Assembly (NCBI GenBank): GCA_029258885.1
Contig: JAPDJW010000009.1
Coordinates: forward strand, 64,001 to 128,000
Direction: 5' to 3'
Source: Thermoproteota archaeon
GTDB taxonomy: Archaea > Thermoproteota > Thermoprotei > Thermofilales > B9-G17
DNA: 64,000 nucleotides
Made by a program: the position numbers and the translations under genes. This document shows, in pieces, positions 2,663 through 19,950 of the stretch. The notes beneath the pieces are model-generated. The model worked only from the letters and a program-made list of their open reading frames with translations, did not search any database and was not told where the DNA came from. Positions within the stretch are counted from its first letter, which is position 1. Each line of letters starts with the position of its first letter.

Positions 2663-3637
2663 TCATCTATTCAGCATACCCGTTATTAGATATGCAAAAA
2701 TAAACACTGCTAAGAACAGTAGGAATGTTAGAACTAGAGTACTAGAACTTGCAGCCCCCGACTCCACGGGCAGGGCAATACATACCTCCGCATCAGATAC
2801 AACATACATTCTTCTCTCGTCGTATTTTACGCCGTCTTTCTCTATCCTAACTCTATATTCACCGGGATTAAGTTTAAGATTTACCCTACCCTCGGAATCC
2901 GTATGTAGGAGGTAGCTCTCCCCCTCCCCCTCAATCCTCACGGTTATGCCGCTAATAGGACTGCCCGATAGGCTTACGATCTTAATAGTAACGTTTAACC
3001 TCTTTAGGCCGTGGAGTGAGGTATATAGCTCCCTCACATAGTTCATAAACTTTATCCAGTTGAATGTTGATCCCGGATCTGTATGATGGCTTCTACCTCC
3101 CCCTACCCTGGGGTTGCTTGGATCGGGCACTTGAATATGCCCTATAATGCCGGAGGATTGGAGAGGACTTGGGGGAGCAACGCCCTCAACCCATACTAAT
3201 GCAACATTATAGTTTTCGTGAAGCCATACGGCAAGCTTAGCAAGGTTTTTATAGAGTGTGTCAGGCCAAATAGTGCTCCCAACATAGCCGGCAATCTCTA
3301 TGCCTACCGAATACCTATTATAGAGGGAGTTTCCAGCATGCCATGCAATATCCTTAATTCTAACCATCTGTGTGAGATGTGTACCAGCTTCATTTATAAC
3401 AAAGTGTGCACTAACTCTAGCTTTAGGATTCTTAAACCAATTAATAGTACCCCCGTAGCTTCCCTCAGCAACATGTATTATAAACCATCTAACATCTTCT
3501 CTGCCTCTATTACTGCTTAAATAGTTGCCTGGATCTGCTGGATTCCATATAGCTCCGGGGTAGTCCGGCTGAGAATATACTTTCACTGCCACAATCACCA
3601 TTAATAATATAATTAATAATGATAGTATTCCACGCAT
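2663..3637 (-). CDS. N-acetylmuramoyl-L-alanine amidase (Amidase_2/PGRP fold), secreted and membrane-anchored
   Basis: IIHVAEG (His), VSAHFVI, AWHAGN, VGIEIAG (Glu), IIGH (His), HTDPG (Asp). N-terminal signal peptide, Ig-like stalk, C-terminal TM. Confidence 0.9.
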   Translation of the reverse strand: MRGILSLLIILLMVIVAVKVYSQPDYPGAIWNPADPGNYLSSNRGREDVRWFIIHVAEGSYGGTINWFKNPKARVSAHFVINEAGTHLTQMVRIKDIAWHAGNSLYNRYSVGIEIAGYVGSTIWPDTLYKNLAKLAVWLHENYNVALVWVEGVAPPSPLQSSGIIGHIQVPDPSNPRVGGGRSHHTDPGSTFNWIKFMNYVRELYTSLHGLKRLNVTIKIVSLSGSPISGITVRIEGEGESYLLHTDSEGRVNLKLNPGEYRVRIEKDGVKYDERRMYVVSDAEVCIALPVESGAASSSTLVLTFLLFLAVFIFAYLITGMLNR

Positions 3638-5117: not shown

Positions 5118-7127
5118 TTACCTTATTAATAACTTTTTAACAACTATTAACGCTGCAGCCACAGCTACAATGATAAGCACTAGTATGAGCTCGATCGGCA
5201 TCTCTTCCCTCTTTTCTTCCACGTGTACTACTAATATAGCGTATGTAGGCTTCCAGTACGGATTTCCCTCAAAGGCTACTTTAACGTAATAGTTTCCCGT
5301 TTCATAGGGCTTCCATAGATGTGTGAATTCGCCGCTACTATTTGTCGATATTTCACACATAAAGCTCCACTCTGAGGTATATTCGGGTCTAAAGTATATC
5401 TTCAAGTTTACGCTTATTCTCGGCTCCACGTAGCCCGATATTTTTACCCACTCTCCAAACACCGCTGAAATATTATATGAAGCAAGGTTTATCTTGAGGC
5501 TTGATTTAGGCTGAACCTCTATAGTTAAAGTATGCTCTGATGGAGCGTAGCTCTTCGATCCGTTGTAGCGAGCTTTAATGCAGTATTTTCCCTCGGTTTG
5601 AGGCCTCCATACGTATTTAAATTCCCCCTTATCATCCGCTAATACGCTGCTTATCTTAATCCAGCTTCCATCGGTCGAGTAGTAGAGGTCTATTTGAGCG
5701 CCAGCTATCGGTGGATTTATTTTACCGCTTATTTCAACGTAGCTACCTACTACGGGTGATGTATTATTTACCTTTAGCGTAAGGTAGGTTTTAGTCTGTA
5801 TTAAGGTTACTCTTATCGTTACTAGCTCATAATCTCCAAGGTAGGCTTCGCTCCCGTTCCACTGGAATAACACTAGATAAACCCCACCCTTAGTTGGGAG
5901 GAACTCGTAAATGAAACCTCCCGTATTATCAGTAGTAACCGTTTTATCCAGTATCCACGTTGCTCCGTTATCGAGGCTATACATGACGTATATTTTAGCT
6001 TTAGGTATCCCCGGCTCAAGCCTACCTTTAATTTCATACCTCTCATATCCCTTACAGGACTTAGGGTACGTTTCGATAACTATATCCGATAGATTTTTCC
6101 TATTTACCTCGTCGAGCGCGTTCCAGAAGCTAGAGTCCTCTATGCCAACATACCATACGGCGACGTATTTAAGCCCGAATTTTTTAATTAGTTTAAGCCT
6201 ATCAAGGTGGCTTGCAGGTCCCGAAAACCATACCTCATGGCGTTTTCTGCCTGCTGTATAGGAGTAGTGGTATTCCCCCTCCTTGTAATCGTATAGGACT
6301 TTAACTCTTAAAGCCTTAGCTCTAGATATTGCGGAGCCATACGTGACTGCCTTCCCTGTTCCGCCGACTGGCCAGTCTATACCGTAGGCGGGAATCCCTA
6401 TAATAAGCTTGTTGCTGGGCACCTTGGTTAATGCATACTCTATTATGTCCTGAATCCACCATATTGGAGCTACAGGACCTGGGGAACCCCCCGGATAGTG
6501 GTAATCGTACGCCATTATCACTACATAATCCACGACTTCAGCTATTTTTTCATAGTCGTATCCAGTAACCACGTCTCTGGTTTTAGGGAATACATCCACG
6601 CTAACTTCCTTATCTCCAATCTGCTTTAGCCTAAGCTTAAGCCTCTTTAGAAAGCTTACAAAGGCCTGTCTATCGCTACTATATACTCTTTCAAAGTCTA
6701 TATTTACCCCGTCGAAGCCGTAGTCTTCCACTACTTTAGCTATTTCCTCAACCACGTCCCTACTAGTCTGATTATTAAGTATAAGCTTAATCAGGGATGA
6801 GCTATGGCATATAACTGTGGGAACAACCTTAATTCCCTTATCCTGAGCGAAGGAGACGAAGTTCTTAAATGTGTCTCCAATAGACTTTATCGGGACAACG
6901 CTTCCATCGTCATCCACCTTAAACCAGAACGGTGATACGTGCGAGAAATACTTATACTTAGAATACAGCTTACTTGTATCAAAGTTCCACCAGGCAAACC
7001 ATCCAAATAGCTTTATCTCATCTGAAGCATTTCCCTGAGCATCTACGGGTAAAGTAGGCGTTAAGGCTACCGATATCATTAAGAGCCCTATACATAACAC
7101 GTTAATTCTAGCATTCAAAGCCATCAC
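5118..7127 (-). CDS. GH18 glycoside hydrolase, spore cortex-lytic (CFLE/YdhD/SleL)-like, with Ig-like repeats and C-terminal TM anchor
   Basis: FDGVNIDFE catalytic motif; VIMAYDYHYPGGSPGPVAP and KLIIGIPAYGIDW typical of CFLE-type GH18; signal peptide; repeated Ig-like modules; TM plus KK. Confidence 0.88.
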   Translation of the reverse strand: MMALNARINVLCIGLLMISVALTPTLPVDAQGNASDEIKLFGWFAWWNFDTSKLYSKYKYFSHVSPFWFKVDDDGSVVPIKSIGDTFKNFVSFAQDKGIKVVPTVICHSSSLIKLILNNQTSRDVVEEIAKVVEDYGFDGVNIDFERVYSSDRQAFVSFLKRLKLRLKQIGDKEVSVDVFPKTRDVVTGYDYEKIAEVVDYVVIMAYDYHYPGGSPGPVAPIWWIQDIIEYALTKVPSNKLIIGIPAYGIDWPVGGTGKAVTYGSAISRAKALRVKVLYDYKEGEYHYSYTAGRKRHEVWFSGPASHLDRLKLIKKFGLKYVAVWYVGIEDSSFWNALDEVNRKNLSDIVIETYPKSCKGYERYEIKGRLEPGIPKAKIYVMYSLDNGATWILDKTVTTDNTGGFIYEFLPTKGGVYLVLFQWNGSEAYLGDYELVTIRVTLIQTKTYLTLKVNNTSPVVGSYVEISGKINPPIAGAQIDLYYSTDGSWIKISSVLADDKGEFKYVWRPQTEGKYCIKARYNGSKSYAPSEHTLTIEVQPKSSLKINLASYNISAVFGEWVKISGYVEPRISVNLKIYFRPEYTSEWSFMCEISTNSSGEFTHLWKPYETGNYYVKVAFEGNPYWKPTYAILVVHVEEKREEMPIELILVLIIVAVAAALIVVKKLLIR

Positions 7128-8567: not shown

Positions 8568-9581
8568 GTGAATCTATTGATCAGCGATATTATATGGATT
8601 TTCACTGCGAAATGTGGATTGAACTGTCCCCACTGCTATGTTAAGCCTAGGTTTTCGAAGCTGAGGGAGCTTTCGAGTAGTGAGAAGATAAGGCTTGTCA
8701 GGGAGGCGGCCGAAATGAACGTAGAGTGGATAGGCTTAAGTGGTGGTGAACCATTAATCCACCCCGACTTTAAAGCTATAGTTAGGGAGGCATCGGAGCA
8801 CAATATGGAAGTCAGCGTAGTAACCAGCGGTATAATGTATATGAAGGAGTCGCTAGACGTCATAAGAAGGCATAATGTATATGTAACTGTAAGCCTTGAT
8901 GGAGCTACTATTAAGAGCCATGAACTAGTAAGAGGAAAGGATGCCTGGAAAAAGACGGTAGGCTTTATTGAGAAGCTTAGATTGATGTCTATAGAATTTT
9001 CAACGGTAATAGCCGTAAACCGCTTCAATTACCTTGAGGCCGGGGAATACGTTGAGTTATCAATGGAGCTAGGCTCGAGATGTGCATGCCTTATACCGAC
9101 TATGAAGACTGGCTCAGCTGTTTCAACTGGAATGTACGTTACGGCACCTAAGTATCTGGAGGCGATAAAGAAGGCTGAGGAAAAAGCTGATGAATTAGGT
9201 TTTCCAGTATCCCTATGGTGTTCGCCCTTTGCCGGACTATATGTTCGCTCGCCATACGTGAAATACGGCAACTGTAGATTCTGGGATAACGTTGACATAG
9301 ATCCTGCAGGGAGAATACTGCTATGTGACACTATAGACATAGTCCTGGCGGAATACAGGGGCAACCTAGCTGAAGCCGTTGAGGAAAGTCTAAGAAATCC
9401 GATAAATAAGCTGGTGGAGGAGGTAGAGGACGACATATGCCTAAAATGTAGAAACTACAGGTTCTGTAGAGGCGGCTGCTTCGCTAGAGCATACATGGAA
9501 TATGGCGACCTAAGGAGACCTGACCCACTATGTCCAGTAGTATTTTATTCTAAAAGAAATTACTATATTAATAAGAAATAG
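8568..9581 (+). CDS. Radical SAM protein with SPASM domain
   Basis: CxxxCxxC (CGLNCPHC), SGGEPL, C-terminal CxxCxxxxxCRGGCxARAY...DPLC. Confidence 0.92.
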   Translation: MNLLISDIIWIFTAKCGLNCPHCYVKPRFSKLRELSSSEKIRLVREAAEMNVEWIGLSGGEPLIHPDFKAIVREASEHNMEVSVVTSGIMYMKESLDVIRRHNVYVTVSLDGATIKSHELVRGKDAWKKTVGFIEKLRLMSIEFSTVIAVNRFNYLEAGEYVELSMELGSRCACLIPTMKTGSAVSTGMYVTAPKYLEAIKKAEEKADELGFPVSLWCSPFAGLYVRSPYVKYGNCRFWDNVDIDPAGRILLCDTIDIVLAEYRGNLAEAVEESLRNPINKLVEEVEDDICLKCRNYRFCRGGCFARAYMEYGDLRRPDPLCPVVFYSKRNYYINKK

Positions 9582-9668: not shown

Positions 9669-10667
9669 TTAGTCTATCTCTTCCTCGACAGCTATTTTAG
9701 TTAGGGATGTGCTTATAATCCTGCCATATTCCTCGACTAGAACCATTATTGCGGCTCTAGGCGGTATTATCCCTTTCTCGGTAATTATTGCATCAATATA
9801 CTCCGGTGGAGTAACGTCGAATGCCGGATTTCTTACAATAATATCACTATTTTTCTTAATGTATTCCTCAGGGACAACCTCTAGCGGGCTCCTCTCCTCA
9901 ATTACTACAAGTTCACCTAGAACGGTTGCTGGACTAAACTTATAAGTTTCGCTGGCGACAAAAAACCTAACCCTGGCCTCCTGTGCGGCAAGGGCTATCT
10001 GTGACGTACCTATTTTATTAACAACAGCTCCGTTGGCTGCAATGGTATCGGCACCTACAATAACCTTATCAATCTTCTTTATGAAGAACCTAACGGCCGA
10101 ATCCGTTATTAGAGTGACATCTATACCTAAATCCCTCAAAGTCCTGTAAGTTATAAGTCCCTGAAACTTAGGCCTAGTCTCGGTTGCGAAAACCCTAATC
10201 TCCTTCCCTGATAGGAAGGCGTGCCTTATAACGGATATTGCCGTCGAGCTATTACAGTGAGTTAAAATAGTATCACCACTTGAAATAAGCCTTGAACCTA
10301 TTCTACCAATCTCCTCAACAGCCTTCTTCGATATCTCAATAAAGCTCTTAGCCGAGTTGATAGCTATACTCCTAAGCTCACTAAAACCCATACCCTCCTC
10401 AAACCCCTGAGACACCCTTATTAGCACGTATCCAACAGCGTTCGGAAGAGAGACTGCCGTAGGCCTAGTAGACTTAAGGTAATCTCCAACCAAATTCAGG
10501 TAATCAACAAAGCTTTCAGGATCTCTAGATAAATCGTACTTCTCAGCAGCTATCTTCAAAGCCTTAGCCGCCGCTCTAGCTATCCTACCGGCCCCCCTAA
10601 TTTTCATAGATTTAATGCCTTCAGCTATCTTAACAACCTCGGGAGGAAAATACTGTGGCGCTACCAT
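9669..10667 (-). CDS. e2b2: Ribose-1,5-bisphosphate isomerase (eIF-2B alpha/beta/delta family)
   Basis: MKIRGAGRIA, RPTAVSL, THCNS (catalytic Cys), ETRP, GADTI (catalytic Asp), NKIGT, NPAFDVTP. Confidence 0.88.
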   Translation of the reverse strand: MVAPQYFPPEVVKIAEGIKSMKIRGAGRIARAAAKALKIAAEKYDLSRDPESFVDYLNLVGDYLKSTRPTAVSLPNAVGYVLIRVSQGFEEGMGFSELRSIAINSAKSFIEISKKAVEEIGRIGSRLISSGDTILTHCNSSTAISVIRHAFLSGKEIRVFATETRPKFQGLITYRTLRDLGIDVTLITDSAVRFFIKKIDKVIVGADTIAANGAVVNKIGTSQIALAAQEARVRFFVASETYKFSPATVLGELVVIEERSPLEVVPEEYIKKNSDIIVRNPAFDVTPPEYIDAIITEKGIIPPRAAIMVLVEEYGRIISTSLTKIAVEEEID

Positions 10668-11656
10668 AGCTTCACCTCAATCTCCTTCAAAAGATCATCG
10701 AGCTCCGGGAACTTCGGCGGCCAGCCATATATGTCTCTAAGTAGGAATATTACCGCCTCAGGCGCTACAAGTCCTTTCTCGGTAATTATTGCGTCAATGT
10801 ACTCGGGAGGAGTAACATCAAATATTGGTAGAATGGACTTCACATCGCCGAGCTCCTTGATGGCCTCACCAATAAACTTTTCGGACGGCCTCTTAATAGT
10901 CAACTCGACGAGCTCTCCGAAGATGGTTTCCGGGCTGAACTTATGGGTTGAGGATGCTATAAACACTCTAACCCTAGCCTCGTGTGCAGCCAGCGCTATC
11001 ATCGACGTACCAACCTTATTTATAACGGCACCGTTCGCGGCTATCGCTTCTGCGCCAGTAATAACCTTATCCACATCCTTCATAAAATACCGGACTGCGG
11101 AATCAACAAAAATAGTGACAGGAATTCCTAGCTCCCTCAGCTTTTTAGCCGTATAGAACCCCTCGGATCCAGGCCTAGATTCAACCACGTAGACCTTAAA
11201 CTTAACTCCTCTATCCCATGCCTCCTTAAAGAGCCTATAAACGGTACCGCTATATGAAATAGTTAAAATGGTCTCTCCGGGATTAATCCTCCTAGAGCCT
11301 ATGATAGCAACAGCTTCAACAGCCTCCCTTAACTCCTGTTTAAGCGCCTCAGCCTCCCTCTTCACGGAATCCTTAATCTTTTCAAAATCCCTAGTCTCAT
11401 CCAGAGCTATATTCAGCCTATGTAGAAGCCTCCTAAGAGAGTTGGCCATCATAACCGACGTAGGCCTAGCGGAATAGAGCTTCTCTACGGCAGTGGAACA
11501 GTATTTAAACGCTGTATTAATATCGCTTGAGTATTCGAAGGCCTTAACGAATACTTCTATTCCAGTAGTTACTACATCGGTTGAACTATATATGTTAAAT
11601 AGAGAGATATCTTCAACCGCCTTATCTAAAACATCGTAATAGTTAGAACTAGACAT
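10661..11656 (-). CDS. eIF-2B/R15Pi-family paralog lacking the canonical catalytic Cys and Asp
   Basis: Same family motifs (RPTSV, ESRP, NKVGT, FDVTPPEYIDAIITEKG), but TISYS replaces THCNS and GAE replaces GAD. Confidence 0.85.
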   Translation of the reverse strand: MSSSNYYDVLDKAVEDISLFNIYSSTDVVTTGIEVFVKAFEYSSDINTAFKYCSTAVEKLYSARPTSVMMANSLRRLLHRLNIALDETRDFEKIKDSVKREAEALKQELREAVEAVAIIGSRRINPGETILTISYSGTVYRLFKEAWDRGVKFKVYVVESRPGSEGFYTAKKLRELGIPVTIFVDSAVRYFMKDVDKVITGAEAIAANGAVINKVGTSMIALAAHEARVRVFIASSTHKFSPETIFGELVELTIKRPSEKFIGEAIKELGDVKSILPIFDVTPPEYIDAIITEKGLVAPEAVIFLLRDIYGWPPKFPELDDLLKEIEVKLW

Positions 11657-11892
11657 ATCATCACGGTTTTTGAATAATATTCATCACATAATTATTTTAT
11701 AAACGTTACTATGCCTCTCTGCACATTACTACGATCTTACGCATCCCTACAGCCGGAAGCTACTGGTTTAAATTCTGTAATTTAAATAGCAATACCATCA
11801 AAATTAATTATTATCATGGTGCAAACAATAAAGATTTATTAAATGATTAGGCTAAAAGAGTAGTGGAAACTCCCGTAATCTAGGGTGGTTAC

Positions 11893-13285: not shown

Positions 13286-14176
13286 TTGGTAGACCTAATA
13301 CTGGCTGGCTCTTCCTCAATAATGCTCGCAGTGGATGTTGCAAGGAGAATGGGGCTGAACGCTATAATACCCGTCGTAAGAAAGTTTCCAGATGGAGAAA
13401 TATACGTGAGAATAACTAAAGCCGTCGAGGATAAAAGCGTAGCCGTAATTCATACGCTGGGAGGAAATCCAAATGACCTACTTATAGAATACCTACTAGT
13501 CGTAAAGACTCTCAAGGATCTCGGCGCTAAGGAAGTTATAGCGGTAATTCCCTACTTAGCCTACGCCAGACAGGATGCTAGATTCAAGGAGGGAGAGGCC
13601 GTTAGCGCGAGAATTATAGCCGAACTAATCGAGAGCGCAGGTATATCGAAGGTATTAACTATAGACGCCCACCTACATAGAATCGAAAGCATAGATAAAC
13701 TATTCAATATAAAGGCCTTAAACGTATCCGCAGTCCCAGAGCTAGCAAAATACATCGCCAACAACTACAGCCTAAGAAACCCAATAGTCGTCGGGCCCGA
13801 TGAGGAATCCGAGCAATGGGCTAAAGTAGCCGCCAAAGTCCTGAATACCGACTACATAGTTCTTGAGAAGAAAAGGCTGGGGGATGAGGAGGTAATCATA
13901 GAATCATCCGTAGACATAGTCAAGAATAGGGATGTAGTAATAGTCGACGATATTATAAGCACCGGAGGAACGATGGTTGAAACAATACACAAGCTCAAGG
14001 AGGCTAATGCAGGTAAAATACTGGTCTCGTGTATACATCCAGTGTTATCGGCCAACGCCTTAAATAAGATACTTCTAGCTGGAGCATACGATATAGTAGC
14101 GACCGATACTATTCAGAGTCCAGTAAGTAAAGTTACAGTTTCACCCGTAATAGCTGAAAATCTACCCAAACTCTAG
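13286..14176 (+). CDS. prs: Ribose-phosphate pyrophosphokinase
   Basis: KFPDGEIYVRI, PYLAYARQD, DAHLH, VGPD, IVDDIISTGGT. Confidence 0.96.
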   Translation: MVDLILAGSSSIMLAVDVARRMGLNAIIPVVRKFPDGEIYVRITKAVEDKSVAVIHTLGGNPNDLLIEYLLVVKTLKDLGAKEVIAVIPYLAYARQDARFKEGEAVSARIIAELIESAGISKVLTIDAHLHRIESIDKLFNIKALNVSAVPELAKYIANNYSLRNPIVVGPDEESEQWAKVAAKVLNTDYIVLEKKRLGDEEVIIESSVDIVKNRDVVIVDDIISTGGTMVETIHKLKEANAGKILVSCIHPVLSANALNKILLAGAYDIVATDTIQSPVSKVTVSPVIAENLPKL

Positions 14177-14328: not shown

Positions 14329-15036
14329 ATGGATGGTGAAGAGAGGGAGGAGAAGGCTGAGGAGTTTGAGGTTGTTGCGGAGTGGGTCATTAGGAGGTTA
14401 AAGAAGATAGAGACGGACGACGTTGAGAAGGTTAAGAGGTGGGTTCTCACATCCCTAGGCTTGGATGAGCTTGCTCAAAACATCTACCTTTATCTCGAAC
14501 GGGTTGAAAGCAGTACTACTACTGAGATAGCTAAGGTTTTCGGTATAAGCCCAACTACTGCACGCAGTAAGCTTGATGATCTCCACACAGTTGGATTAGT
14601 TGACTATATTGGCAGGGAGTATCACCTCACCTACGATTCTATTGCTAAGGCATTAAACTACGTGCTTATTCCGAGGATAACAGCTACCCTGAAATCCATA
14701 GCTAGGGTTGCCGCTGAAGTTGAGAGAGGTATAAAGAAGAGTATTAAGGTTCATGTAAGTAGGAATGAGCTTACTAGGGGCATGGTTGAGGAGTTATCGT
14801 TCTTTGGAAGCACCGTCATAACTAGGGGATTAATTGAGGCATTCCATAACAGGGGTAAGAGGATAATCATTAAGGGATTCGGTAGTCTCGTTTTTGAAAA
14901 GGATATTGATCCCGAACTTGCTGATGCAGTTATTGAACGCATAGTATCGTTTGGCCCAGTTAAGATATCTAAGGATCTCTATTCAGCTATAGCTCACAAG
15001 TTTAAGAGTATGGGTAACTTGGAGCTATATGATTAG
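14329..15036 (+). CDS. Winged-HTH protein with C-terminal domain containing repeated (F/M)G(S/P/N)xx(I/F/L) units
   Basis: Central HTH-like segment STTTEIAKVFGISPTTARSKLDDLHTVGLV; paralogous to the next gene. Confidence 0.65.
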   Translation: MDGEEREEKAEEFEVVAEWVIRRLKKIETDDVEKVKRWVLTSLGLDELAQNIYLYLERVESSTTTEIAKVFGISPTTARSKLDDLHTVGLVDYIGREYHLTYDSIAKALNYVLIPRITATLKSIARVAAEVERGIKKSIKVHVSRNELTRGMVEELSFFGSTVITRGLIEAFHNRGKRIIIKGFGSLVFEKDIDPELADAVIERIVSFGPVKISKDLYSAIAHKFKSMGNLELYD

Positions 15037-15047
15037 GAGGTGGTTTT

Positions 15048-15770
15048 GTGGAGGAGAGTATTTTAGCTGAATGGAGGATAAGGAGGCTTAAAAAACCATC
15101 TGTAATAGAGAAGGAGGATGTTATTAAGTGGGCTCTATATTCCATAGGTGTGGAGGGTAAGAGTCAGGACGTATACCTATACCTATTGAATAAGGGCTCC
15201 TCAACAGTAGGTGAGCTAGCTAGGATATTTGGATTAGGCGAGGAGGAGGTACGTGGGATAATTGATACCCTATATACCTATGGACTCGTGGATAGGATAG
15301 GTAGTGAAGTTATTGTTGGGGATGATTTAGCCTCATCTATATCCAAGAGATATATACCTAGGCTTGAAGATACTCTTAATAGAATACTTGAGGTTCTCGG
15401 CGGAGTTTCCCCTGGAATAGCTAGGACTGTTAAACTTAGAGTTCAAGCTAAGTTTGACTTTGCGGGAGAGCTGGACTCTATGCTGGCTTCAATTGATAAG
15501 CTATCAGGGTCTGTTAAAGCCTTAAGAACTAGGATTAGCGAGTTATACGGGAGGTATAATCAGGAGATTATAGATGATATATCCGACGAGTTGGGGGATA
15601 TAGAGGATGAAATAAGCTCTATTAGGGAGGATATAGAAGATAAGGTTAGCGATCTGGAGGACTTTAGGGGTGATATGGAGAGCGAGCTTGAGAAGATAAG
15701 GGAGCGGATGAACTATGTATCAGAGAAGCTTCAGGAATTAGATAGGCGAATTGAGTCCCTAACCAAATAG
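15048..15770 (+). CDS. Winged-HTH protein with acidic C-terminal coiled coil
   Basis: STVGELARIFGLGEEEVRGIIDTLYTYGLV HTH; heptad- and D/E-rich C-terminal half; GGAGGTGG SD before GTG. Confidence 0.65.
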   Translation: MEESILAEWRIRRLKKPSVIEKEDVIKWALYSIGVEGKSQDVYLYLLNKGSSTVGELARIFGLGEEEVRGIIDTLYTYGLVDRIGSEVIVGDDLASSISKRYIPRLEDTLNRILEVLGGVSPGIARTVKLRVQAKFDFAGELDSMLASIDKLSGSVKALRTRISELYGRYNQEIIDDISDELGDIEDEISSIREDIEDKVSDLEDFRGDMESELEKIRERMNYVSEKLQELDRRIESLTK

Positions 15771-16294: not shown

Positions 16295-17446
16295 TTGAGG
16301 GTTACGGTATTTACTCTTGAATTCCCACCGAACATTTACGGTGGGGTAGGAGTACATGTATCCAATATTACTAGGATTCTAGCGAGATATTGTAGAGTAG
16401 AAGTTAGGACTATAGGTGAAAAATACTCCTCTGAAAACTACCATGGTGTTCATGTTAAGAGATATCCATGCTGGAGTGATCTGATTTCAAGGACATACGA
16501 GAAGTTTAGGCCCGTATTTAAGGCGTACAGTATCAGCTTAGCTGTAAATAGTGAGCCTATAGACTCGGATATAGTTCACTTCCACACCTGGTATATGGCT
16601 CTAGGAGGACTATACGCTAAAAAGCTGTATAATGTTAAGCTGGTGGCTACAGTTCATAGTTTAGAGCCTATGAGGCCGTGGAAGAGGGAGGCTCTTGGCT
16701 CGGGATATAATTTATCCATGTGGGCTGAAATTCAGGGATTAAAGGGGTGTGATGCAATTATAGCTGTAAGCGGGCAGACTAAGGAGGATATAGTAAAGTC
16801 CTACGGTATAAGCAGGGATAAAATACACGTTATACATAATGGGATAGACGCTGAAGTATGGAGGCCTGGAGAGGATCTTCGAGTGCTTGAGAGATACGGT
16901 ATAAGAAGGCCATATGCGCTATTTGTTGGTAGGTTATCGAGGCAGAAGGGGATTTTCACGCTGGTCGAGGCGGCCAAAATTGTTGGTGAGAATTGTCAGT
17001 TTGTCTTTGCTACGGGTAAACCTGATGAAAGGAGTATTCTCGAGGAGTTTAAGAGGAAAATTAGGGATATAGATAATATTGTCTGGATAAATAAGATGCT
17101 GAATATCAATGAATTAATTCCCTTATATACGATGGCTTCCGTATTTGTCTGTCCAAGTATATATGAGCCATTTGGCATAGTTAACTTGGAGGCTATGGCC
17201 ACTGAGACGCCAGTTGTGGCGAGTAGGGTTGGGGGAATACCAGAGATAGTTAAGGATGGAGAGACAGGGATTCTTGTTGAGCCGAATAACCCGGAGCAGC
17301 TTGCCGATGCAATAACTTACCTGCTTGAAAATCCTGAGGAAGCCGTAGAGATGGGGAGAAGAGGTAGAAGGAGGGTTCTTAAGGAATTTACTTGGGAGAA
17401 GATAGCCGAGAAAACATTTAAACTATACTGCAGCCTGTTGGACTAG
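16295..17446 (+). CDS. glgA: GT4 glycosyltransferase, GlgA/GlgM (actinobacterial-type glycogen synthase / maltose-1-phosphate synthase)-like
   Basis: TLEFPPNIYGGVGVHV, HFHTWY, HSLEPMRPWKREALGSGY, CPSIYEPFGIVNLEAMA. Confidence 0.85.
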   Translation: MRVTVFTLEFPPNIYGGVGVHVSNITRILARYCRVEVRTIGEKYSSENYHGVHVKRYPCWSDLISRTYEKFRPVFKAYSISLAVNSEPIDSDIVHFHTWYMALGGLYAKKLYNVKLVATVHSLEPMRPWKREALGSGYNLSMWAEIQGLKGCDAIIAVSGQTKEDIVKSYGISRDKIHVIHNGIDAEVWRPGEDLRVLERYGIRRPYALFVGRLSRQKGIFTLVEAAKIVGENCQFVFATGKPDERSILEEFKRKIRDIDNIVWINKMLNINELIPLYTMASVFVCPSIYEPFGIVNLEAMATETPVVASRVGGIPEIVKDGETGILVEPNNPEQLADAITYLLENPEEAVEMGRRGRRRVLKEFTWEKIAEKTFKLYCSLLD

Positions 17447-17454
17447 CGGAATTA

Positions 17455-17688
17455 CTATACTATTACGGGGATGTTCGCATCCCTAAGTAGTTCTCTAAAC
17501 TCCTCAATATTCATTTGAGCAATCTTAGACGCTCGTCTAATATCGCCAAATTCAATATAATAGATTAAAGCCGCCCTTATTCTAGGCCTCTGTTTCCTAA
17601 TAAACTCCCAATTAGCCTCTCTTCTCCTAATCCTCCTGGCCTCCTCCTCAAGCCTACGCCACTTCTCAAGCTTCTCTTCTAAGCTCAT
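17455..17688 (-). CDS. Small HTH antitoxin-like protein (UPF0175-like C-terminus), copy 2
   Basis: GDIRRASKIAQMNIEEFRELL HTH-like segment; paralog of 18213-18446. Confidence 0.7.
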   Translation of the reverse strand: MSLEEKLEKWRRLEEEARRIRRREANWEFIRKQRPRIRAALIYYIEFGDIRRASKIAQMNIEEFRELLRDANIPVIV

Positions 17689-18428
17689 TTAAAACCTCCT
17701 CCAGGTCTCTTCTCGGAAAATAATGTCTAGTCTCACATTCATATTCTCTAAACACATCGAGAGGATTTCTAATGCTAATTATCCCTCGTATAATAGCTTC
17801 TCTTATTACCTCTAGGGCTCTCCATACAACTACGCTGCTTAGTTCACTGAATATATCAACACACATTAACGCGCCTCTATTTTCGGTAAGTACCACGTAG
17901 CCTCTTCTACGCCCAACGACTAGGCAAACCGCTTCAGGGAGATCAACGCCTCTCAGCCAAGGCATCCCATGCGTCATCTCTATAAGTCTTCTAGCTTCCT
18001 CTAATATCTCGTGGGTTTCGGTGAATAAAGCTAGCTCTCCCCTCGAGAGCAACTCTGAAATCCATAGAAGCGTATTTTCACTCCTAATTTCATCTAGAAC
18101 TCTCTCCGGTACGAATACAGTTCTAAACAATCTAAATAAAATATCTCTTCTTCTCCATCGAGACCAATCAATTAGAAAGCAGGTATCTGCTATCGCATAC
18201 AATACCTTACACCTAAGCAACATTAGGTATATTAGCTTTAATCCTCAATTCATTAAACTCCTCAATAGTTAAGCCAGCAATACGTGAAGCTACATATAGA
18301 TCTCCTGTTTCAACGTAAAACTTTAAGGCTACCTTTATCCTCGGAGGCTGATTATTTATAAACTCCCAATTAGCCTCTCTTCTCCTAATTCTCCTAGCTT
18401 CTTCCTCAAGCCTATGCCACTTCTCAAG
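17600..18428. repeat. 71-bp direct repeat (17600-17670 and 18358-18428), 66/71 identical
   Basis: ATAAACTCCCAATTAGCCTCTCTTCTCCTAAT...GCCACTTCTCAAG occurs in both antitoxin genes with 5 mismatches (manual alignment). Confidence 0.92.
17666..18223 (-). CDS. vapC: PIN-domain toxin (VapC/DUF3368-like)
   Basis: AIADTCFLID, VFVPERVLDE, DLPEAVCL, VLTEN PIN acidic motif set. Confidence 0.8.
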   Translation of the reverse strand: MLLRCKVLYAIADTCFLIDWSRWRRRDILFRLFRTVFVPERVLDEIRSENTLLWISELLSRGELALFTETHEILEEARRLIEMTHGMPWLRGVDLPEAVCLVVGRRRGYVVLTENRGALMCVDIFSELSSVVVWRALEVIREAIIRGIISIRNPLDVFREYECETRHYFPRRDLEEVLNELRREA

Positions 18429-18446
18429 TTGCTTTAAGTTCATCAC
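18213..18446 (-). CDS. Small HTH antitoxin-like protein, copy 1
   Basis: Overlaps the toxin start; GDLYVASRIAGLTIEEFNEL. Confidence 0.72.
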   Translation of the reverse strand: MMNLKQLEKWHRLEEEARRIRRREANWEFINNQPPRIKVALKFYVETGDLYVASRIAGLTIEEFNELRIKANIPNVA

Positions 18447-18570
18447 TATAATATGTAGCGAGGTAGCTTATAGATATTATCTTACAAGCCCCCAGTTTTT
18501 CAGTATTACTGCTATTAGTTTAGCCATAGATATAGAGAGCATTAATATACTCTAGTTGCTTAATTAAACA

Positions 18571-19950
18571 GTGTCCTGTAGTAAGTATCTTTTAAGGATG
18601 TTTAGGATAGCTAGGTGGAGCAGTTTTCATGATGTAGCTGAGCTAGAGGTTTACATCGAGTGGATGAGAAGGCTTAAAGGAATGGATTTTACGGTATTTA
18701 GGGTAGAGGGCGACGGCAAGGTTGAGAGATACTATGTTCCATTAATATCCTCTAGCAGTATTCCTGAAGGATATCCTAAGGATAGAGCATATAAATTAAA
18801 TTCCCGCTACTTTCTAGAGGCTGAGTACTTTAAGGAGTATACATGGATTATATTTCAGTGCGAACTAGATTGCGACGAGCTGATCGTCAAAGGGAAGCTA
18901 GACCTCAACGACGAGTTTAAGGTAAAACCATTGAATGTAAGCACGACTAACTGTCTCAGTTACATTGGATCGGATACTGTCTCGTATGTTTTAAAGTCTT
19001 ATAGGAAGATACCTAGGGTTAATATTGAGGCTAAGATGCTCTGGAAGCTTACGAGAAGAGGCTTCAGAAATATCCCTAGGCTCTACCTTCAGCTTATACA
19101 TAGAAAGTATGGACCATTATCCATCTATCTCGAGTATGTAGATAGTCTAGGAGATGGCGGTTACCCGTTTGCAGGAAACTTTATTAACTACCTTGAGGGC
19201 AGAGAGCCCGTAGATGTTAAGCTGGCCCGAGAGCTCGGTAAAACCACCGCATACCTACATCTAAATCTTGTGGATCATTATGATGACTTCTTCAAGCCTG
19301 AAAGTATTTCAAGTCTTGACGTAGGGCTGTGGATTAAAAGGATCAAAGGCATCTACCTTAAATTCCGAGAAACTATCCCATGTAGTGGCGATAGGCTACA
19401 TTCAATCCTGGATCTATTTGAATTATACCTAGGCAGGATTAAGGCTAGGACTCATCAGGATTATCACTTAGCACAAATACTGTATGCTAGGGATGGCAGA
19501 TTTGTAATACTGGATTTTGAGGGCGAGCCTAATAGAAGCGACGAGGAGAGGCTCTTAAAGGAGCCATTCTTGAGGGATGTAGCATGTCTGCTGAGGAGCT
19601 TCGACTATCTAATAGCATTTACCCTAGCGTTTAAGAACGGAATTAGCCTTAGGGATGCATGTAATATCCTGCTTAACAAGGAGAAGAGAATATTTAACTG
19701 GTATAGAGAGGTATCCCTAAATCTCCTCGAAAGCTACATTAAAACACTCGGTCCAAAGACTGAGGAGGCTACTGGATTCGACCGAGGTACCTTAGAGGAT
19801 GAAATAGTGCAGCTTTTAGCTCCGTGGATGCTTGAGAAGGCGATATACGAGCTGAAGTACGAACACGACTATAGACCTGAGAATATTATTGTCCCTCTCA
19901 CGGGAATAAAGATGCTGCTTGAGGGAACTCATCCCATATATAGTTTATAA
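18571..19950 (+). CDS. Maltokinase (Mak/Pep2)-like phosphotransferase
   Basis: STTNC, GKTTAYLHLNL, RTHQDYHLAQIL, VILDFEGEPNRS..ER..K...LRDVACLLRSFDY, EKAIYELKYE..YRP. Confidence 0.85.
   Translation: MSCSKYLLRMFRIARWSSFHDVAELEVYIEWMRRLKGMDFTVFRVEGDGKVERYYVPLISSSSIPEGYPKDRAYKLNSRYFLEAEYFKEYTWIIFQCELDCDELIVKGKLDLNDEFKVKPLNVSTTNCLSYIGSDTVSYVLKSYRKIPRVNIEAKMLWKLTRRGFRNIPRLYLQLIHRKYGPLSIYLEYVDSLGDGGYPFAGNFINYLEGREPVDVKLARELGKTTAYLHLNLVDHYDDFFKPESISSLDVGLWIKRIKGIYLKFRETIPCSGDRLHSILDLFELYLGRIKARTHQDYHLAQILYARDGRFVILDFEGEPNRSDEERLLKEPFLRDVACLLRSFDYLIAFTLAFKNGISLRDACNILLNKEKRIFNWYREVSLNLLESYIKTLGPKTEEATGFDRGTLEDEIVQLLAPWMLEKAIYELKYEHDYRPENIIVPLTGIKMLLEGTHPIYSL

Follow-up and report, generated by a model that had tools for sequence, protein, structure and literature searches.

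A non-catalytic paralog paired with ribose-1,5-bisphosphate isomerase in archaea: a candidate second subunit that may supply the AMP-activator site

In a 64,000-nucleotide stretch of DNA from a Thermoproteota archaeon (the window, by which we mean this whole stretch), two overlapping genes encode a ribose-1,5-bisphosphate isomerase (R15Pi) and a non-catalytic paralog of it, and we consider it moderately probable that the two are subunits of a heteromeric R15Pi. We designate the downstream gene, an R15Pi of 332 aa at 9669-10667 on the minus strand, as A, and the upstream gene, a paralog of 331 aa at 10661-11656 on the same strand, as D. As we read the residues, a single R15P isomerase in the archaeal NMP/RuBisCO shunt would be built from both products, A as its catalytic and D as its non-catalytic subunit, with D supplying the activator site and probably also a sugar-monophosphate or NMP pocket. 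The coupled genes would yield A-D dimers that assemble into a mixed hexamer, whose AMP site has its R124/R229/D290 face from D and its R190/N209 face from A (numbering of Pyrococcus horikoshii PH0208), such that AMP activation of A would now depend on D. The rebuilt pocket of D, which resembles that of eIF2B-alpha, would bind a pentose-5-phosphate or an NMP and tune the open or closed state of the hexamer; given that the heteromer is real, we put the chance that this pocket senses a sugar monophosphate or NMP at about even.

The two reading frames share positions 10661-10667, in agreement with the 7-bp overlap of two paralogs described in the original prediction. The junction of the D stop and the A start (10661-10678, minus strand) further includes an SD-like GAGGTGA at 10672-10678, which precedes the ATG codon of A by 4 nt, as a putative translational-coupling signal, and 40 nt before the ATG of D lies a palindromic TATA-box-like octamer, TTTATAAA (11696-11703, minus strand), which is the putative promoter of a D-A operon. 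As the flanking genes are divergent (from 11893, plus strand) and convergent (ending at 9581, plus strand), D and A are likely to constitute a two-gene operon. A scan for sigma-70 promoters and terminators gave no matches above the chance level, and one RNA run contained a single 186-nt piece, located within A. We rejected an assembly artefact because the whole stretch forms part of one contig, with a likeness of at least 99%, in three public runs, which come from three studies; the public runs containing it are mostly hydrothermal vent or marine sediment metagenomes. The arrangement is also no product of chance, as the D-then-A tandem recurs in dozens of genomes. A prs gene had been placed 1.6 kb away, and it indeed lies at 13286-14176, 1630 bp from the start of D, with a score at the cut-off of NF002095; however, the pathway link that this suggested is weak, as the gene is on the opposite strand with an M20 peptidase gene in between, and hence outside the operon of the pair, and prs-like genes, read from sequence and not by HMM, occur near the pair in only 5 of 56 loci.

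The window holds several other genes of interest. Downstream of prs are two tandem, related winged-helix-like regulator genes (14329-15770, plus strand), the second with a coiled-coil tail, followed by a glycogen/maltose module (16295-19950, plus strand) composed of a maltokinase-like gene and a gene for a GlgA-type glycogen synthase that scores above the TIGR02149 cut-off. On the other side of the pair are a secreted-looking Amidase_2 protein with a hydrophobic C-terminus (2663-3637, minus strand; N-acetylmuramoyl-L-alanine amidase, PF01510, E = 2e-22), found here in an archaeon, and a GH18-type protein of membrane-anchored appearance, read from sequence only (5118-7127, minus strand), which together possibly serve in bacterial cell-wall scavenging.

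The alignment of A with D covers 280 aa at 44% identity (E = 5e-77), and we mapped the residues of both onto PH0208 following PMC5789824. All six motifs reported earlier are found at aligned positions: IRGA (23-26), THCNS (136-140) and GAD (205-207) in A, and IYSS (22-25), TISYS (132-136) and GAE (201-203) in D. A scores 407 bits against the R15Pi equivalog model TIGR00511 (cut-off 314) and matches PH0208 with E = 7e-104, while it scores below the cut-off of both the methylthioribose-1-phosphate isomerase (MtnA) model TIGR00512 (217 bits against 279) and the aIF2B model NF006210. Its set of catalytic and phosphate-binding residues is complete (R24, R68, C138, S140, Q169, D207, N217, K218 and K243), including counterparts of PH0208 C135/D204, of R22, R65, Q166 and K215, and of S137 and K240. 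Judged from these residues and the profile score, A is predicted to be an intact ribose-1,5-bisphosphate isomerase. By itself, its AMP site is incomplete: codon 127 (10287-10289, minus strand) is aligned with the AMP-binding R124 of PH0208 and specifies Leu, whereas the corresponding codon of D, that of Arg123, is at 11288-11290. The remaining AMP residues are present in A, with the W231 position occupied by Arg as in most relatives. The host genome also encodes the pathway partners, namely one RuBisCO-family protein, two AMP phosphorylases and RpiA, which completes the NMP shunt, and it further carries a separate MtnA-type gene. The RuBisCO (G000 C1:251744-252985, L004) scores 456 against the form III cut-off of 497 of TIGR03326 and represents a divergent subtype like that of six relatives, while both AMP phosphorylase paralogs (G000 C1:259655-261142, L006, and C2:218228-219718, L005) score above the TIGR03327 cut-off, one of them being encoded about 7 kb from the RuBisCO gene.

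D scores 268 bits against TIGR00511, below the cut-off of 314, and has Y23, S134, E165 and E203 in place of PH0208 R22, C135, Q166 and D204; the alignment thus confirms that it lacks the catalytic Cys and Asp along with two ligands of the 1-phosphate. The earlier view of the upstream paralog as catalytically dead is upheld across the family: Cys and Asp occur together in none of 79 D sequences, and Q166 likewise in none. A C135S mutant of R15Pi is inactive and retains substrate binding (PMC5789824). In the predicted structure (AF2, pLDDT 91) D adopts a fold like that of closed R15Pi, with PH0208 as the best structural match (Z 39.2, rmsd 2.3 A over 319 residues). It retains the pocket residues R64, S136, N213, K214 and K239 (PH0208 R65, S137, N214, K215 and K240), the AMP-site residues R123, R189, K193, N208, R228 and D288, and the hexamer-contact residues E285 and Y286. 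With dN/dS values of 0.06-0.27, as against 0.04-0.13 for A, D is under purifying selection, and a pseudogene was rejected on these values together with the site conservation.

The conservation within D bears on what it may do. Pocket residues R64, S136, K214 and K239 are conserved at 99-100% in the 79 D, the positions of R65 and S137 being invariant and that of 204 nearly always acidic, and S26/T27 and E165, which are new in D, are fixed. This strict conservation, taken with the fact that D possesses every residue that a hexamer and AMP site of D alone would require, would fit a D that forms a separate homo-oligomer in the same pathway next to an AMP-independent A, acting as a ligand sensor or as an enzyme on another sugar phosphate (e.g. 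a monophosphate isomerase using Glu203). We regard such independence as unlikely: position 135 varies freely among S, C, T, G and A, and N214 is replaced by Ser in 29 of 79 D, which is unlike a catalytic centre, and RpiA and MtnA are already available in the host. A further proposal is that D is a structural or stabilising spacer in an A-D assembly, serving thermostability or half-site geometry with a pocket devoid of any relevant ligand and no regulatory part. Its C-terminal domain is indeed better conserved than the N-terminal one (mean top-residue frequency 0.67 versus 0.38), and the equivalents of E254/E260 in the long loop, which are invariant in A, have been lost; but the near-absolute retention of the pocket, and the fixation of S26/T27 and E165, suggest a ligand, and the AMP face is better kept in D than in A, making a mere spacer improbable.

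The AMP site provides the principal argument for a heteromer. R15Pi is a hexamer of three dimers that is activated by AMP, and the nucleotide lies between three protomers, with R124, R229, W231 and D290 coming from one, and N209/V251 and R190/K194 from the other two (PMC5789824). In an unbiased scan we took the 104 sites that are at least 90% conserved in 31 R15Pi without an adjoining D and compared them with 79 paired A and 79 D, seeking those conserved at under 75% in paired A, yet at 90% or more in D. Only three of the 104 emerged, R127, A191 and R232 in the numbering of A; R127 and R232 are the AMP ligands R124 and R229 of PH0208, while A191 is two residues away from R190. The frequency of R124 is 1.00 in the single R15Pi, 0.56 in paired A and 0.99 in D, and that of R229 is 0.97, 0.71 and 1.00, respectively (Fisher p-values for such A/D site counts are overstated, as related genomes are counted separately). 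The complete R124/R229/D290 triad is intact in 30 of the 31 singles, in 33 of the 79 paired A and in 77 of the 79 D, and in no pair is it broken in both members. On the contrary side, 31 of the 79 paired A retain an intact AMP site. At the same time paired A have kept the other AMP face, with R190 in 76 and N209 in 78 of 79. On the tree of A, R124 changed about nine times, each time in a paired A, that of the window (Leu127) included. One apparently single A without R229 has its D on another contig, whereas for L116, from the incomplete genome of a Bathyarchaeia MAG, R229 is absent and a D was not found; in the unlinked pair of G043 all three triad residues have been lost from A and are intact in D.

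The simplest reading of this complementary decay is a composite AMP site built from the face of D and that of A, with A free to lose its own R124/R229/D290 face because D would provide one. The evidence is strong if circumstantial, falling short of proof because a strict test of phylogenetically independent pairs yielded two supported pairs only, too few to reach significance. A plain alternative is that A may have lost its dependence on AMP. An independent D, however, leaves unexplained why the decay of A is specific to the AMP face and happens only where D exists.

The phyletic pattern of D further ties it to A. Nearly all Thermofilales have D directly upstream of A, as do Desulfurococcales, Conexivisphaera and several Bathyarchaeia, and in about 20 Asgard genomes the two genes are head-to-head, the cluster members being named as Hermodarchaeota and other Asgards; the pair is also present in Infirmifilum uzonense (Thermofilaceae). 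In Baldrarchaeota and Geoarchaeota D is unlinked to A or at a contig edge, and such unlinked genes would be compatible with a D that works on its own. We surveyed 74 genomes of the class, all at least 90% complete, counting R15Pi-like matches at E 1e-75: 32 have two or three R15Pi-like genes and none has exactly one. All 32 genomes bearing A and D are among the 33 with RuBisCO, while 41 of the 74 have neither R15Pi-like genes nor RuBisCO. D without A was found in none of these 74 genomes, which again speaks against its independence. A, D and RuBisCO are hence present or absent together in near perfect fashion, with few independent events behind the pattern. In trees the D-type copies branch away from A, and a recent local duplication is rejected by the AU test (p 0.00016 for the Thermoprotei A and D as a single clade); D is an ancient paralog. 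Of 56 loci, 15 have a PfkB gene resembling ribose-1-phosphate kinase near the pair, 5 have RuBisCO there and 4 a nucleoside-phosphorylase-like gene, read from sequence without an HMM.

Some genomes depart from this pattern. Most other sampled Asgard genomes (L163-L203) have a single R15Pi of a distinct clade with an RPTEP motif, and D was not found in them with the query used. The Thermofilales MAG G012 has a third copy (L372:702-1676) of the Bathyarchaeia/Asgard D type, attributable to contamination or transfer, and in Desulfurococcales ex4484_217_1 (L073:4974-5483) A breaks after 169 aa with D intact. A search of proteins 640-2000 aa in length detected no A-D fusion, a weak form of evidence, and G028 has a 674-aa frame with an in-frame stop at the A-D junction.

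Further signals link the two genes. SD-like 5-mers occur at 51 of 62 A-D junctions as against 306 of 1580 control windows, and tandem spacings are mostly -4 to -25 nt. When A is compared with the D of its own genome, identical runs of DNA of at least 20 nt are present in 41 of 79 pairs, versus 134 of 6162 cross pairs, and they concentrate in two segments of A that comprise AMP-site and oligomer residues, ending just past the catalytic Asp in all pairs but one. The first hot spot of related pairs, A residues 211-236 (9960-10037, minus strand), holds the equivalents of N209, N214/K215, K226, R229 and W231, with its left edge just past the catalytic Asp; the second, residues 283-298 (9774-9821, minus strand), includes the counterparts of the hexamer contact E287/Y288 and of D290, which binds AMP. 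Judging by these runs, gene conversion homogenises the AMP and oligomer segments of A and D, but such tracts are to be expected between any two paralogs under shared constraints, with or without co-assembly. The longest identical run in the pair of the window is 20 nt, ending at residue 299, and there is no long identical tract in hot spot 1 in the host genome. In Conexivisphaera (L081:3992-5915) an identical tract of 171 nt extends across the GAD motif and D there has Asp; conversion may likewise explain the Asp in D copies of Desulfurococcales. Certain database proteins (P0118; P0011, P0038, P0042, P0066 and P0117) alternate A- and D-type motifs around the converted tract, and are either the outcome of long conversions or assembly chimeras joined through identical DNA.

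A model of the A-D complex scored 0.85 against 0.53 for the best of three controls, with runs agreeing in at least 94% of contacts and a partner pLDDT of at least 86; among reference cases, 58 of 80 solved complexes attained the mark used for such models, as did 2 of 110 mismatched pairs, a rough calibration as own alignments were used. Since the modelled interface is that of the solved R15Pi homodimer, the model probably reflects family likeness, and we take it as a sign of compatibility and no demonstration of binding. The likeness of A and D shows no excess at the predicted dimer-interface positions (0.49, versus 0.47 in the rest of the C-terminal domain). The enzyme-pseudoenzyme heteromer that had been proposed for the pair thus gains indirect support, from the AMP-site decay, the shared profile with RuBisCO, the coupling signals and the converted segments.

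Comparison with characterised relatives brings out what is distinctive in the pair. D shares with R15Pi (Thermococcus kodakarensis, PDB 3A11 and 3VM6; P. horikoshii PH0208, 5YFJ; TIGR00511; PMC5789824) the fold, the residues of dimer and hexamer, the three-protomer AMP site and a genome with RuBisCO and AMP phosphorylase. In contrast to the known enzymes, which are homohexamers of one gene, there are here two ancient paralogs, of which A keeps catalysis while losing R124/R229 and D keeps the AMP face without C135, D204, R22 and Q166. Both A and D fall below the cut-off for MtnA, which is of the same fold and family (PF01008; D scores 131 bits against the 279 of TIGR00512), and the MtnA-type gene of the genome, on another contig (C3), is the third member of the family. 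Thermococcal aIF2B (PH0440, 1VB5; NF006210) resembles D in being non-catalytic, with Ser replacing the Cys and Glu replacing Q166; however, aIF2B of the PH0440 type is about 276 aa long without helix alpha12 (PMC4787765), whereas D has alpha12 (H299-310) and a GW tail.

The regulatory core of eIF2B is an alpha2(beta-delta)2 assembly, R15Pi-derived, non-catalytic and heteromeric (PMC4787765, PMC8187479), and the sugar-monophosphate pocket of its alpha subunit is made of Y130, R132, G196, E198, N208 and K234 (PMC8187479). Five of these six are matched in D at a constant offset of +5 (Y135, G201, E203, N213 and K239), while the R132 site is Gly137 in the D of the window and R or K in 20 of 79 D; in D, too, the 5-phosphate side of the pocket is kept and the 1-phosphate side lost. 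Whereas eIF2B has no active subunit and serves eIF2 together with gamma and epsilon, one member of the A-D pair is still an enzyme, and the pair tracks RuBisCO. [quoted passage not shown] In one careful tree eIF2B-delta falls within D (99/97), and in a larger quick tree it lies outside; the careful trees leave out 44 rows (long branches and near-duplicates), eIF2B-beta being compared by profile scores only. On removal of 26 pocket columns eIF2B-delta moves next to alpha, beside aIF2B-like proteins, and the placement within D is lost, showing that the signal for it rests on the pocket; AU tests on the alternatives for delta reject none (p 0.33, 0.39 and 0.31). The tree of eIF2B subunits, MtnA and R15Pi that had been called for thus sets D apart from A and aIF2B, but it does not uphold a descent of eIF2B from D. 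As the trees do not make D the ancestor of eIF2B, the likeness of the two is best read as parallel loss. A bolder view, which we hold to be quite unlikely, is that eIF2B-delta, or the whole set of regulatory subunits, has its archaeal sister in the D clade, found in TACK and Asgard lineages, with the A-D heterohexamer as a surviving R15Pi-to-eIF2B intermediate that possibly binds aIF2-alpha.

The matched pocket residues, and the better scoring of the three human eIF2B subunits with the D profile, could also favour an eIF2B-like role for D, with or without A, in which it would bind aIF2-alpha and couple translation to the level of sugar phosphates; binding of aIF2-alpha has been reported for thermococcal aIF2B (as cited in PMC4787765). 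Such a role is very improbable in light of several observations: D scores just 129 bits on the aIF2B model (cut-off 339) and branches separately from aIF2B in all trees, and there is no aIF2-alpha gene in the pair loci collected. Moreover, aIF2 is general among archaea, but D is absent from the 41 genomes without RuBisCO. The N-terminal domain, which in eIF2B is the part that binds eIF2-alpha, has in D only six sites conserved at 90% or more, and nearly all of these line the pocket. Given that D follows RuBisCO and has so poorly conserved an N-terminal domain, a role in translation is unlikely, and the archaeal parallel to the eIF2B core that was originally envisaged stands as a structural and evolutionary analogy.

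The regulatory core of eIF2B is thought to have been derived from a homohexameric R15Pi by duplication and loss of catalysis. In the literature searched we found no description of a heteromeric R15Pi or of the D paralog, though earlier mention in Dev 2009, Nakamura 2012 or Aono 2012 is possible, nor of a living intermediate between the homohexameric R15Pi and the eIF2B core. If true, the heteromeric R15Pi favoured here would constitute a natural enzyme/pseudoenzyme heterohexamer within the family of eIF2B, with catalysis residing in A and the activator site in D. It predicts that the R15Pi of Thermofilales, of many Bathyarchaeia and of Hermodarchaeota-like Asgards would be poorly active or AMP-blind when alone, and that many of the 'eIF-2B' or 'R15Pi' labels attached to D are wrong. 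The pair would thus make the first step of the proposed route from R15Pi to eIF2B testable.
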